From a virus (Duplodnaviria > Heunggongvirae > Uroviricota > Caudoviricetes), in the IMG/VR virus record IMGVR_UViG_2734482780_000003: a stretch of 4,941 bases of DNA. The stretch is one strand, 5' to 3'. Numbering within the stretch: position 1 is the first letter of the stretch; the number at the start of each line of letters is the position of its first letter. The notes beneath the pieces are model-generated. The model had not been told where the DNA came from. It was given only the letters and a program-made list of their open reading frames with translations, and did not search any database. The position numbers and the translations under genes are program-made. Positions 754 through 4,941 of the stretch are shown here, one piece after another.

Positions 754-2083
754 TTAACCGTCATGCATCATGCTGGCACGGGCGCGCGCACGTTTATCCC
801 GCTCGTATTTTTCGAGCGCATCCTGTAACTGGCGGTCAAGCTGTGTCCCCGGCGCAGTACCACCCGTCAGGCTGATGTGATATTCGTTTTTACTCTGGTC
901 CACATAAGAGCGGCCAGCCGGTGCCGTGACCGGCTGATAAGCCTGATAGCCTGCATAAGAGCTGGTCGCCGGAATATAACCACCGGTGCCATACGTGGCG
1001 GCATTAGTCCTTGCGGCGGTCTGGTCAAGTGTGTCTGACTCTTTGTTGATGACACCGAGTTTTTCCAGTACCCAGTCAATACCACTGCGCAGTTTGTTGA
1101 ACGCATTAAGCGGCAGCATCAACGCGTCAGCCAGTGCCTGCCCGAACATGACACCCGTGTCACGGCAACGGTTCAGGGTGTCCTGGGTGGCTTTGACCGG
1201 GGCAATCAGGTTTTTAAACCACTGCCACGCGGCCTGTAACTTTTCGCCCAGCCAGTCAAACACCGGCTTAAGTGGCGTGAACAGTTCCCCCACCGGCGCA
1301 AATGCCGCTTTCAGCCCTTCCACCACACCGCCAAAGAATGCGCTGACAGGCTCCCAGTATTTACGAATAAGCAACGCCCCGGCGACAATGGCGGCCACCA
1401 CGGCAACAACCGGCCAGCTAATCGCCCCGATGGCCGTCATAACAGCACTGCCAACCGTCGTGAAGATTGCCCCCATTGCGCCTGCTGCCGCGATGATGGC
1501 ATTGATGCCGGTGATAACCGGCCAGGCTACGAGGCCAATGGCACCGATGACGCCAGTCAGCGCCAGTGCGCCACCGACAATTAGGCCAATGGTTGACGCC
1601 AGTGATTTGTTTTTCTGGATCCAGCCGTCGAGTTTTAACACATACTTTGTGGCCGTCTGTGTGAGCTTACGCAGTGCGCCTTCCTGCTGGTCAAACAGGT
1701 CAGTCCCCACCGCTTCATAAGCGGACTGAAACTCCTTAAAGTCACCGCCGAGGTTATCCTGCATGATTTTAACCAGCTCTTCCGTTTTACCGTCCGAGGC
1801 TTTCAGCGTGGCGGTCAGCTTATCCAGTTTTCCGCTTGCTGCCGCTGCCAGTAAAACGTTCGCTGATTTCAGGGCTTCCTCACCAAAAATGGTTTTAAGG
1901 TATTCCCCCTTCTGAGACGTTCCCAGCTTGTGTTTATCAAAGCTGGCCTGAATCTCTTTCAGAATGGTGAACAACGGGCGCATATTTCCCTTTTTGTCCG
2001 AGGTTTTAACGCCAAGCTCTTTGAGTGCATCCCATGCTTTCCCTGTCGGAGCCTGTAATCGGGTGACAACGGCACTGCTACCC
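754..2083 (-). pseudogene. T: Tail tape measure protein T (P2 gpT-like), 5'-truncated: C-terminal portion only, frame intact to the native stop
   Basis: Minus-strand frame is open from 2094 to the TAA at 756..754; the first ATG is at 1983..1981, giving the 409-aa track ORF. The product has tape-measure character (central Gly/Ala-rich hydrophobic segment, ending ...EKYERDKRARARASMMHDG) and is followed by U and D. There is no N-terminal half: upstream the sequence switches abruptly to the 5' end of J. Confidence 0.75.
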
Positions 2084-2188
2084 GTAAAGGGAAATCAGTG
2101 TCGCCTTGCGTTCAGCGAGAATGCTTTCAAAGTCCAGCTCCTCGACCACATCCGGTGCGGGTAGCTGGTTCAGGTCGATAATTGGCAT
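2078..2188 (-). pseudogene. J: Baseplate assembly protein J (P2 gpJ-like) remnant: first 35 codons, then one non-native Gly codon and a TAG stop
   Basis: ATG 2188..2186, four nt after the W stop, translates MPIIDLNQLPAPDVVEELDFESILAERKATLISLYG*. I recall this as the gpJ N-terminus, which in P2 continues ...SLYP.... Here homology ends after the Tyr codon (2086..2084) and a TAG follows at 2080..2078. Confidence 0.75.
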
Positions 2189-2192
2189 GGTT

Positions 2193-2540
2193 TCAACTCA
2201 CAGGGATGGTTAATGAAAGTGGCTGGCCGGTGTCGTTGTGCTGGCCGGTTAACGTGGCCGTCATTCGCCCGTCAAAACTGCGCTCAGTGGTGACGGATGA
2301 CAGGGTGACGCGGGGTTCCCATTTCAGCACCGCCATGTAACAGGCGACCTTAATCTGCAACTCAAGCGCCGGGGTCTGCGGCTGGTCAATCATTGATGCC
2401 AGCAACGAGCCGTAATCACGACGCATCACCCGTGAGCCGACCGGTGTGCGCAGGATATCGCCGATACTCTGGCTGATATGCTCAAGGTCAGTGACAGTCA
2501 GGCCATCACTGCGATTCATTCCGAGATAACGCGCTGTCAT
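2193..2540 (-). CDS. W: Baseplate wedge protein W (P2 gpW-like), 115 aa
   Basis: Complete ORF from ATG 2540..2538 to TGA 2195..2193. The start overlaps the V stop (ATGA). Product MTARYLGMNRSDGLTVTDLEHISQSIGDILRTPVGSRVMRRDYGSLLASMIDQ... matches my recollection of gpW. Synteny V-W-J. Confidence 0.9.
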   Translation of the reverse strand: MTARYLGMNRSDGLTVTDLEHISQSIGDILRTPVGSRVMRRDYGSLLASMIDQPQTPALELQIKVACYMAVLKWEPRVTLSSVTTERSFDGRMTATLTGQHNDTGQPLSLTIPVS

Positions 2541-3172
2541 AAAGGACTCCCGGTTGTGCCGCCGCTGTCGCCGGGGTGTTTATGGGTATGCAGTACCTTA
2601 CCGTTTGATGAGAGTTCACCGCCGGTGTGTTCAATGTTGCCGCGCATCGTCCCGCCCTTCTGCACTTCCAGCGTGCCGGTAATCAGCCTGTTGGTGCAGA
2701 CCACCTCCGGGGTGTCCAGGGTGACGCGGGTTGATGCTTTCACCATGAACACCGGCACCGTGGCAGTAACAGAATCAGAAGCCGTCACGCTGGCCGTTTT
2801 AATTCCGCTTACCGTGAGTGCACTGGTTTCGGGTTCATATTCAATCACCGCCCCGTCAGGGAAACGGATATGCAGGGCATCCGCCGACACAGACGGCGAG
2901 GGGTTATCGCCGGAATAAATCCCCGGCAGAACGAACGCCGTGTCGAGTTCACCACCCACGGCCAGAATCAGCACCTGTTCCCCCACGGAAGGTGCCCACC
3001 ATGTGCGCGAACGCCCGGCACGATGGGTCAGCCACTGAAGCCAGTCGGTGCACATGCCGCCGGTCTGCACGCGGCAGCGACCGGCGTTAAGGTCGGTTTC
3101 GACGATAATGCCGGTGCGAATCATGTTGCGCAGTGCGCGCGCGAGTTCCTGAATATTTGCGAGAGTGTTCAT
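2537..3172 (-). CDS. V: Baseplate spike / central hub protein V (P2 gpV-like), 211 aa
   Basis: ATG at 3172..3170 (MNTLANIQELARALRNMIRTGIIVETDLNAGRCRVQTGG...) to TGA 2539..2537. The track ORF starts 6 codons earlier at a TTG (3190..3188), which I reject in favour of the ATG. Product matches my recollection of gpV. Confidence 0.88.
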   Translation of the reverse strand: MNTLANIQELARALRNMIRTGIIVETDLNAGRCRVQTGGMCTDWLQWLTHRAGRSRTWWAPSVGEQVLILAVGGELDTAFVLPGIYSGDNPSPSVSADALHIRFPDGAVIEYEPETSALTVSGIKTASVTASDSVTATVPVFMVKASTRVTLDTPEVVCTNRLITGTLEVQKGGTMRGNIEHTGGELSSNGKVLHTHKHPGDSGGTTGSPL

Positions 3173-3182
3173 GCATGTGAGA

Positions 3183-3240
3183 TTGCACAATATATAAAAG
3201 TTATGCTATCTGGATTCATTTGTAGAACTACCAGACAACA
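3183..3240 (-). promoter_or_regulatory. Candidate Ogr/Delta-activated late promoter for V (P_V-like): TGT...ACA partial dyad plus an AT-rich -10-like element
   Basis: On the minus strand upstream of the V ATG: TGTTGTCTGGTAGTTCTACA (3240..3221) contains TGT-N11-ACA (or TGT-N14-ACA), followed about 30-40 nt downstream by TTTTATATATT (3199..3189). P2 late promoters carry a TGT-N12-ACA activator site near -55 and P2 has a late promoter in front of V. The spacing here is not an exact match to the consensus as I recall it. Confidence 0.4.
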
Positions 3241-3255
3241 TTCAAGGAGAGCGTA

Positions 3256-4041
3256 ATGGTCAGCTATAATGTGACTAATGTGTGGGGGCTAATCGTTTTT
3301 TTCCTTTGTAGCTTTGCAGTATTAGCATTTTTTAGCTTTGGTAAAAGTAACCTTATGAGGCTTATTGCACATTATTTCAATTTTGGATATTCAGACAAAA
3401 AATTAAAAAGACTTGACCGCGAGTGGCGCGACATTCAACTATTTAAAATAATTAACGGAATCAATGTATCAGGCATTGAAAATGTGAGAATGATACAGCA
3501 GGGACTGATTGATGGAAAACTAAAAACATCGTATTTTTTCCTTACTCGCATCTGGGGTGACATAACAAAACCACCACACATAATTAAAACAATAATTGTA
3601 ATTCTGGCCAGTATTATTTATATTCTCTTCGCATGTTATATACACAACAAACAATCCGCTATAGTAAGAGATGCCATAGGCATACCATATAAAAATATGA
3701 TGTACTATGTTTATAGTGACAAAGTTCTTTTATCCTTCAAAAATAAAGCAGTTGAATTTAATAAAACTTATAGCCTTGCCGATTGCAAGAGACTGCAAAA
3801 CGTATTTATAAAAGACACACTTCCTGAAATCGCCTGCAATAAGCTCTTACAGCTAAACGAGGAGGACTCCGAATGGTTAAGCCAGGAGATTAAAGATAAT
3901 AACAGTCACAAAAAAGCATTATTAATACTATCCCTCGTCTATTTCACTTCAGGTCTGGTTATATTCCTGTCATATACAAAATTCTTTTACGCCAATAAGA
4001 AGGTTTTAGAATACAAAGCATCAAATAAAAATCACTCATAA
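3256..4041 (+). CDS. Hypothetical AT-rich membrane protein (261 aa, three predicted transmembrane helices); cargo gene at the S/V junction, the position occupied by orf30 in P2
   Basis: ORF from ATG 3256 to TAA 4039..4041. AAGGAG Shine-Dalgarno at 3244..3249 with 6-nt spacing. Followed 6 nt downstream by a 13-bp perfect hairpin. Composition is markedly AT-rich (roughly one-third GC by eye, against more than half in the flanking phage genes) with many ATA/AAA/AAT codons. Hydrophobic segments at residues ~9-29 (VWGLIVFFLCSFAVLAFFSFG), ~108-130 (HIIKTIIVILASIIYILFACYIH) and ~221-241 (ALLILSLVYFTSGLVIFLSYT). Orientation is opposite to the surrounding phage operons. No recognisable homology from memory. 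Confidence 0.7.
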   Translation: MVSYNVTNVWGLIVFFLCSFAVLAFFSFGKSNLMRLIAHYFNFGYSDKKLKRLDREWRDIQLFKIINGINVSGIENVRMIQQGLIDGKLKTSYFFLTRIWGDITKPPHIIKTIIVILASIIYILFACYIHNKQSAIVRDAIGIPYKNMMYYVYSDKVLLSFKNKAVEFNKTYSLADCKRLQNVFIKDTLPEIACNKLLQLNEEDSEWLSQEIKDNNSHKKALLILSLVYFTSGLVIFLSYTKFFYANKKVLEYKASNKNHS

Positions 4042-4046
4042 ACCTC

Positions 4047-4083
4047 TAAACATTGAGCGACCAGCATGGCCGCTCAATGTTTA
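4047..4083. terminator. Bidirectional intrinsic terminator hairpin between the convergent cargo gene (+) and S (-)
   Basis: Perfect inverted repeat TAAACATTGAGCG (4047..4059) / CGCTCAATGTTTA (4071..4083) around an 11-nt loop (4060..4070), with possible extra CCA/TGG pairing inside the loop. It lies 6 nt after the cargo stop and about 30 nt after the S stop. T/A-rich runs follow on both strands (TTAATT on plus; AGAGGTTTATGAGTGATTTTTATTTG on minus). Confidence 0.7.
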
Positions 4084-4112
4084 ATTGCGCATCAGCCTCT
4101 GCCTGGATAAAA

Positions 4113-4565
4113 CTAACGCTCAAGGTGAGCCAGGATAATCTCCTCAATCATCTGCACATCCTCACCGGTAAAGCCGAGCAGAGGACGCGCCGGATAATCA
4201 ATTTTCTTACCGTCTTTCCGGGTTTCTTCCGACAGACCGAACTGATGCACACTGGCGATTTTCGGCGACTTCCCGCCGTAAAATTCCATTGATGCCTGCT
4301 CCGGGCTGGCGCGGATATGCAAAAAACGACTGGTGATAAGTTTCGCAAACATTTTTCGCTTAACACGACCAGTCTTTTTTCTGGCGCTCTGCTGCTGGCG
4401 TGGCGCGTAGGGTGTGCCGTCCGGGGCTTTCTGAGCCATCACCCGACGCTGCTGACTCTGCCGCAGACGTTTCGCCAGTTCGGCGCTCAGTCGCCGACGC
4501 CCTGACGGTGACAGCGATTCAATCAGTCCGGTCAGCCGGTCTTCAAAACGCTTAAACTCATTCAT
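4113..4565 (-). CDS. S: Tail completion protein S (P2 gpS-like), 150 aa
   Basis: Complete ORF from ATG 4565..4563 to TAG 4115..4113. The start lies 8 nt inside the R stop region (R TGA at 4560..4558). Product MNEFKRFEDRLTGLIESLSPSGRRRLSAELAKRLRQSQQRRVMAQKAPDGTPYAPRQQQSARKK... matches my recollection of gpS. Confidence 0.88.
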   Translation of the reverse strand: MNEFKRFEDRLTGLIESLSPSGRRRLSAELAKRLRQSQQRRVMAQKAPDGTPYAPRQQQSARKKTGRVKRKMFAKLITSRFLHIRASPEQASMEFYGGKSPKIASVHQFGLSEETRKDGKKIDYPARPLLGFTGEDVQMIEEIILAHLER

Positions 4566-4941
4566 CCCACTTGCTCACCAGTTCGCCATTGATATAAAGC
4601 TCCACCGGGCGGGTGACCGGCTCCGGCGGCGTGGGTTCCGGGATATTCTTCACATGCAGTGCGCCGTCCACCTCACTGACCAGCGTGCGCTCGGTCAGCA
4701 TCAGGCTGATGCTGATATCAAAGCTGCTGTCATTGTTGATGTCTGCATAAAACGTGAAGCCCTTTTTCTGGCCTTCGTCAGTGGTCATGATGTCGGGCTG
4801 ATTTTCCCGCAGCCACGCCAGCACCGGCACGATGAGCAGGTCAAAATCACCGGTAAAGTCGGTCACAATCACATTGAGCGTGTAACGCTTTTCGAATGAC
4901 AGCGACGTCGCCAGTGTGGAGGCAATACTCCCGTTACACGC
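4558..4941 (-). CDS. R: Tail completion protein R (P2 gpR-like), C-terminal part; the 5' end lies beyond the window end
   Basis: Minus-strand frame is open from the window end to TGA 4560..4558, translating ACNGSIASTLATSLSFEKRYTLNVIVTDFTGDFDLLIVPVLAWLRENQPDIMTTDEGQKKGFTFYADINNDS...SKWDE. The track start at 4872 is an internal GTG; the true start is upstream of the window. Matches my recollection of gpR and the R-S order. Confidence 0.82.
   Translation of the reverse strand, partial: ACNGSIASTLATSLSFEKRYTLNVIVTDFTGDFDLLIVPVLAWLRENQPDIMTTDEGQKKGFTFYADINNDSSFDISISLMLTERTLVSEVDGALHVKNIPEPTPPEPVTRPVELYINGELVSKWDE

Follow-up and report, generated by a model that had tools for sequence, protein, structure and literature searches.

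Correspondence of a perfect inverted repeat between the convergent S and orf30 genes of a P2-type prophage to the putative O operon terminator of phage P2

Bidirectional intrinsic terminators flanked by A and T tracts constitute a well-known class of elements between convergent genes (PMC1852404; bioRxiv 10.1101/2022.10.23.513370), and it is usual in such elements to read the AAA/TTT at the base of the stem as the A and U tracts (PMC1852404). In the phage P2 record AF063097 (= NC_001895), positions 9397..9433 carry the regulatory annotation "putative rho-independent terminator for O operon"; the feature is flanked by S (8915..9367) and orf30 (9439..10224), the latter being described as "nonessential." The orf30 locus is known to be variable among P2-like phages (PMC3091744; PMC6823313), and none of the recent papers on P2-like defence hotspots among those searched mentions either orf30 or this terminator; transcript ends of P2 mapped by term-seq, S1 or 3'-RACE were likewise not found in the literature searched.

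The window analysed here, i.e., the whole stretch of 4,941 nucleotides, comes from a P2-type (Peduovirus) prophage whose late genes are encoded on the minus strand; between 3000 and 4941, its identity to bacteriophage P2 is 98.2%. Read from right to left, the window contains the 3' part of R (4872..4558, minus strand); S (4113..4565, minus strand), the last gene of the O operon, which is assigned to tail completion or virion morphogenesis by PF05069 (Phage_tail_S, E = 4.9e-44) and the P2 annotation; orf30 (3256..4041, plus strand), an AT-rich, nonessential accessory gene that is convergent with S and 98.1% identical to P2 Orf30; V (2537..3172, minus strand), encoding the baseplate spike and opening the next late operon according to PF04717 (Phage_base_V), PF18715 (Phage_spike) and the P2 annotation; W (2540..2193, minus strand); and, left of approximately 2084, parts of the tape-measure gene T, followed by U and the start of D. 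The GC content of orf30 is approximately 0.33, versus approximately 0.57. Its product has no Pfam or PADLOC match and belongs to phrog_2407, a group of unknown function; hydropathy analysis revealed three hydrophobic segments (residues 4-31, 106-132 and 219-241). The diversity of the gene peaks at 3260-3420 and 3580-3660, and its 3' end is 98-100% conserved.

Relative to P2, the prophage carries 11 substitutions in the 3173-4112 interval, and it has a J/T junction at 2084. At this junction (2083/2084, lying in window 2041-2190), a short N-terminal stub of the baseplate gene J, which runs leftwards from 2190, abuts an internal part of T (ORF 1983..754), while the rest of J, the genes I, H, G, Z/fun, FI, FII and E, and the start of T are absent. 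Among the complete E. coli genomes of the collection, none extends across the junction, the matches beginning at 2084. Since the junction is unmatched and genes are missing, the sequence would represent either a defective prophage with a private deletion or an assembly chimera. A different J/E deletion is found in strain PSJ-12.

Between the two convergent genes, the arm TAAACATTGAGCG (4047-4059) is the exact reverse complement of the arm CGCTCAATGTTTA (4071-4083), with 11 nt between them, which bears out the perfect 13-bp hairpin described in the first-pass annotation. The coordinates of the flanking stop codons given there, 4041 on the plus strand and 4113 on the minus strand, hold as well: the TAA of orf30 occupies 4039-4041 and the TAG of S occupies 4115..4113, so that the hairpin (4047..4083) starts 5 nt past the former and ends 29 nt short of the latter. 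A repeat finder extends the arms to 17 nt (4047-4063 and 4067-4083; 94% complementary) around a 3-nt loop, the inner extension consisting of CCA (4061-4063) and TGG (4067-4069) with GCA (4064-4066) as the loop. The single imperfection, at 4060/4070, is an A.C mismatch in plus-strand RNA and a G.U pair in minus-strand RNA, which gives the late-strand transcript an uninterrupted 17-bp stem. Folded as RNA, both strands are stable, with -21.3 kcal/mol (z = -5.4) for the plus strand and -26.3 kcal/mol (z = -7.1) for the minus strand.

The 13-bp arms form the longest perfect inverted repeat in the window with a loop of 3-20 nt. Among 300 dinucleotide-preserving shuffles of the window, none reached 13 bp and the maximum of 11 bp occurred in two, and the analytic expectation for such a 13-bp repeat is 0.004 per window. 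Moreover, the stem persists across 70 IMG/VR loci, whose Orf30 proteins diverge by up to 19%. The notion of a functionless inverted repeat arising by chance is effectively refuted by the shuffles and the expectation and retains next to no probability.

When the S-orf30 spacer of P2 was compared, the same element was found there. Window 4047-4083 (positions 4548-4584 of locus L001) is base-for-base AF063097 9397..9433, and window 4030-4120 is 100% identical to phage P2, so that the 37 nt, the flanks and the position between S and orf30 leave the element without any difference from the P2 O-operon terminator. Judged by sequence, the hairpin is the already annotated putative terminator of the P2 O operon and, as such, an ordinary and known element.

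To rank the hairpin as a terminator, all closed hairpins of 11-50 nt in the window were scored on both strands using the d'Aubenton-Carafa tail function and linear discriminant with ViennaRNA energies. The core stem-loop (4051-4079, CATTGAGCG...CGCTCAATG), with the AAA/TTT of the stem base counted as A and U tracts, ranked first in the 4.9-kb window on each strand and was the sole candidate with d above zero on the late strand. It reached d = +16.1 on the late (minus) strand (dG of -20.0 kcal/mol, tail score of 3.65, tail UUUAGAGGUUUAU) and d = +5.8 on the orf30 (plus) strand (dG of -15.5 kcal/mol, tail score of 3.91, tail UUUAAUUG), values that serve for ranking and are not calibrated probabilities, as the coefficients were trained on older energy parameters than the modern ones applied here. 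The tail scores of 3.65 and 3.91 exceed in magnitude 2.5, the cut-off at which TransTermHP keeps a candidate. The U-tracts themselves are short and interrupted, with three U after the core stem followed by a break on both strands: the orf30-direction transcript would have TTTAATTG (4080..4087, plus strand; 5 T of 8), and the tract of the late, S-direction transcript (4038..4050, minus strand) overlaps the stop codon of orf30. The hairpin was missed by a stricter consensus scan requiring 5 T among the 8 positions that follow the maximal stem.

Set against the known class, the element resembles bidirectional intrinsic terminators of convergent genes in its convergent stop codons, its single palindromic hairpin, its AAA/TTT sides and its positive score on both strands. 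It differs from them in that the A and T tracts comprise 3 nt and are followed by an interrupted U-rich sequence, and in that the stem is unusually long (13-17 bp) and moderately GC-rich. The claim that the hairpin acts as a terminator, made in the first-pass annotation, is partly supported, by the match to the P2 annotation, the top score on both strands and the occurrence of positional analogues (see below) but tempered by the shortness of the U-tracts. Its extension to a terminator shared by both transcripts finds agreement in the positive d values of both strands (+16.1 and +5.8) and is weakened by the want of a sigma-70-like promoter upstream of orf30; this shared half is the least secure part of the first reading.

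We consider it probable that the hairpin is an intrinsic terminator that ends the late O operon and, by symmetry, probably the orf30 transcript too. According to the P2 annotation, the late O operon is transcribed toward the hairpin. Late transcripts run leftwards on the minus strand, and the operon O-N-M-L-X-Y-K-lysABC-R-S would end just past S, where the late RNA is predicted to form the 17-bp stem, or the 13-bp core with the U-tract unpaired, followed by UUUAGAGGUUUAU. RNA polymerase would be stopped, or its passage strongly reduced, before it could proceed antisense through orf30 into the P_V promoter. Because the element is a near-perfect palindrome with AAA/TTT at the base of its stem, the plus strand is expected to yield a hairpin with a tail as well, in this case UUUAAUUG. 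The orf30 transcript would most probably be ended at this site, and transcription of orf30 in the lysogen would be kept from entering S, R and the lysis genes in antisense. No sigma-70 consensus promoter, i.e., none matching 9 of 12 positions or better, was found upstream of orf30, so that the role in the orf30 direction is the less secure one. Terminator function is a prediction: the sequence, its identity to the P2 feature, the stable fold, the top rank and the location are direct observations, from which we infer termination, its efficiency in each direction and the transcription of orf30.

A further inverted repeat lies inside S, formed by AAAAACGACTGGT (4322-4334) and ACCAGTCTTTTTT (4368-4380); read on the plus strand, antisense to S, it precedes a run of TTTTTT and reaches d = +1.7. 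The repeat might provide a second stop for read-through from orf30, or it might be a product of chance.

The proximity of the hairpin to orf30, whose stop codon is only 5 nt away, raises an alternative, namely, that it is mainly orf30's own terminator and/or a 3' stem-loop protecting the orf30 mRNA against exonucleases, with late transcription reading through or being ended by Rho. The tail TTTAATTG is more U-rich than that of the late transcript (5 of 8 versus 3 of 8), and the hairpin is strictly inherited with orf30: the 71-nt spacer is present in 462 and orf30 in 464 of 5,426 complete E. coli genomes, and all 66 newly fetched IMG/VR loci with exact arms encode Orf30. We nevertheless regard this alternative as unlikely, given that (i) the late-strand stem is the stabler (-26.3 versus -21.3 kcal/mol) and has the higher d (+16.1 versus +5.8); (ii) the commonest variant of the hairpin pairs only in late-strand RNA; (iii) the cargo-free allele of the locus also has a hairpin after S, as if the late operon needed one; and (iv) no promoter of orf30 was detected.

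The variants were examined in IMG/VR loci encoding an Orf30 81-100% identical to the present one (n = 74), the hairpin being readable in 72 and folded in 70. The reference 37 nt are unchanged in 52 of the 70 folded loci and occur in seven further variants elsewhere, and all eight versions fold strongly, at -14.1 kcal/mol or below on the plus strand and -17.9 kcal/mol or below on the minus strand. The most frequent change, 4067T>C, found in 13 of 72 loci, keeps a G.U pair only in late-strand RNA, a weak hint that the late-strand fold may be the selected one. Compensatory double changes were not seen among the 72 loci, all changes being single-sided or wobble; since the sequences are too similar, the covariation test is without power and says nothing either way. 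At approximately 0.02, the nucleotide diversity of the hairpin is as high as in the adjoining gene S. A tblastn search of 50,697 phage records returned no relative of Orf30 below 81% identity. In a scan of species-representative genomes, the contig JANCAF010000122.1 (L003; 579 nt), from an assembly labelled Actinacidiphila cocklensis, encoded the first 49 residues of Orf30 with 98% identity, and this match most likely represents contamination with E. coli or P2 DNA.

The combination of convergent genes, a strong stem and weak U-tracts is also what would be expected of an element that positions collisions, pausing the converging RNA polymerases so that head-on and trailing collisions release them. 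For E. coli bidirectional terminators without good U-tracts, such a collision mechanism, in which the stem-loop is needed, has been proposed (bioRxiv 10.1101/2022.10.23.513370). At this locus, it would require simultaneous transcription from both sides, and no orf30 promoter was detected. In temperate phages, moreover, accessory and late genes are usually active in different states, the former being expressed in lysogeny and the latter in lytic growth. We thus hold collision positioning to be improbable, somewhat more so than a role confined mainly to orf30, and retain intrinsic termination of the O operon as the preferred reading.

The first-pass annotation had also placed the right-hand edge of the AT-rich insert at the hairpin. 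The hairpin does coincide with the end of the AT-rich composition, the 29 nt between it and the S stop codon (4084..4112) having a GC content of 48%, but the exchanged DNA ends 29 nt further right. In comparisons with Wphi and 51 IMG/VR loci, homology to cargo-free phages breaks exactly at the ATG of V (3172/3173) and at the stop codon of S (4112/4113), and these breakpoints rule out the hairpin as the insert boundary. Within the resulting module of 940 bp (3173..4112) lie the P_V promoter region, orf30, the hairpin and the 29-nt spacer. The module replaces the whole S-V spacer of 66 bp (L002 1174-1239) and is not an insertion into it.

The perfect symmetry of the repeat and its place near the end of a horizontally exchanged module could be taken to indicate a role at the DNA level, whether in protein binding, as a scar left by recombination or insertion of the module, or as one copy of a dispersed palindromic repeat (REP or MITE-like). 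The module breakpoint, on the other hand, is at the S stop codon, 29 nt from the hairpin, and the element sits 3' to both genes, with no promoter close by. Neither the same palindrome at the borders of other cargo modules nor a protein footprint was seen. The only Rfam 15 matches, to mir-9256, score 30.2 and 27.9 bits where the gathering score is 80; they are subthreshold and correspond to a generic hairpin. A dispersed repeat of the REP/BIME or MITE-like kind was rejected as a candidate: the spacer occurs at 475 places in the 462 E. coli genomes, with at most two per genome, matching the prophage copies; there are no plasmid copies, and all IMG/VR copies lie singly beside orf30. This tight linkage and low copy number show that the element is not a dispersed repeat. 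Taken as a whole, a DNA-level role appears very improbable.

Replacement of the whole spacer implies that the orf30 module brings along a separate version of P_V, the essential late promoter. The binding site of the activator Ogr in P_V falls at 3214..3241 (minus strand) by coordinate transfer (AF063097 misc_feature 10239..10266, corresponding to L001 3715-3742) and has no mismatch to P2. Window 3180-3219 is invariant across 59 distinct sequences, although variability within the region is highest next to it, in the 5' part of orf30 (3260-3420); the invariant stretch is probably the P_V core promoter and perhaps also a divergent promoter of orf30. In the P2 record, transcription of the V operon is annotated as starting with the first coding base of V (window 3172), in which case the V mRNA would be leaderless. 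The dyads of the activator site in three S-V alleles are centred approximately 55-57 nt upstream of the ATG.

A census of the 80 closest S-gene loci revealed four alleles between S and V: the cargo-free spacer of 66 bp (Wphi type) in 51 loci; the orf30 module of 940 bp in 22, including one whose contig breaks off before V; a module of approximately 1.26 kb with an antisense ORF of 389 aa (L102 type; L102 4454-5725) in 5; and a module of 1040 bp with an antisense ORF of 288 aa (L103 type; L103 4454-5493) in 2. The 389-aa and 288-aa ORFs are AT-rich and antisense to the late genes; neither protein has a Pfam or PADLOC match, and the 389-aa protein has hydrophobic segments, as does Orf30. Each allele has its own, nonhomologous hairpin just downstream of S. 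In the L102 type, GGCCA-N5-TGGCC is bordered by runs of A and T and scores d = +10.9 and +20.1, and in the L103 type, a 10-bp stem is formed by GGCCACGATA-N3-TATCGTGGCC (d = +13.0 in the cargo direction). The hairpin of the cargo-free allele, TGCCGCCGG-N6-CCGGCGGCA (L082 4485-4508; L002 1185-1208), has d = +8.6. The recurrence at the same site of hairpins without a common sequence is the best indirect evidence, by analogy, that the end of the operon may need a hairpin.

The cargo-free hairpin of Wphi and L-413C likewise follows directly after S and is presumed, as in the orf30 allele, to close the O operon. Unlike the hairpin of the orf30 allele in sequence, it is GC-rich with a poor U-tract (tail score of 2.76), and it sits approximately 12-35 nt upstream of the V ATG, inside P_V, with no cargo gene to separate it from the promoter. 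As it lies within P_V, judged by the P2-annotated start, terminator and promoter would overlap in this allele.

The orf30 cassette also invites comparison with morons, the accessory cassettes of temperate phages in which a promoter, a gene and a terminator sit between late genes. Like them, it is a lone AT-rich gene oriented antisense to the late genes, located at a variable locus and equipped with a terminator of its own. Deviant composition and a predicted terminator are thus present, whereas the promoter that a moron would carry was not detected for orf30; in addition, the orf30 cassette differs from a moron in that it replaces the whole S-V spacer, carries the essential P_V and supplies the terminator of the O operon. 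We tentatively suggest, as a possibility that is more doubtful than likely, that the S-V junction is a third hotspot of exchangeable cassettes, each allele being a replacement unit with an antisense gene, a bidirectional terminator and its own P_V, and the hairpin acting as a required adaptor between two essential late operons. Orf30 and the 389-aa protein, given their hydrophobic segments, could be exclusion or abortive-infection factors.

To conclude, the hairpin behaves as the textbook predicts for the end of an operon facing a convergent gene, and in this respect it matters little. It is useful as an annotation anchor, marking the end of the O operon in approximately 460 of 5,426 complete E. 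coli genomes (orf30 allele). What is mildly new is only that the S-V alleles each appear to form a complete cassette, bringing a terminator and a P_V of their own; this is of use to those who engineer P2 or P4 delivery vectors or search for new cargo genes between S and V.
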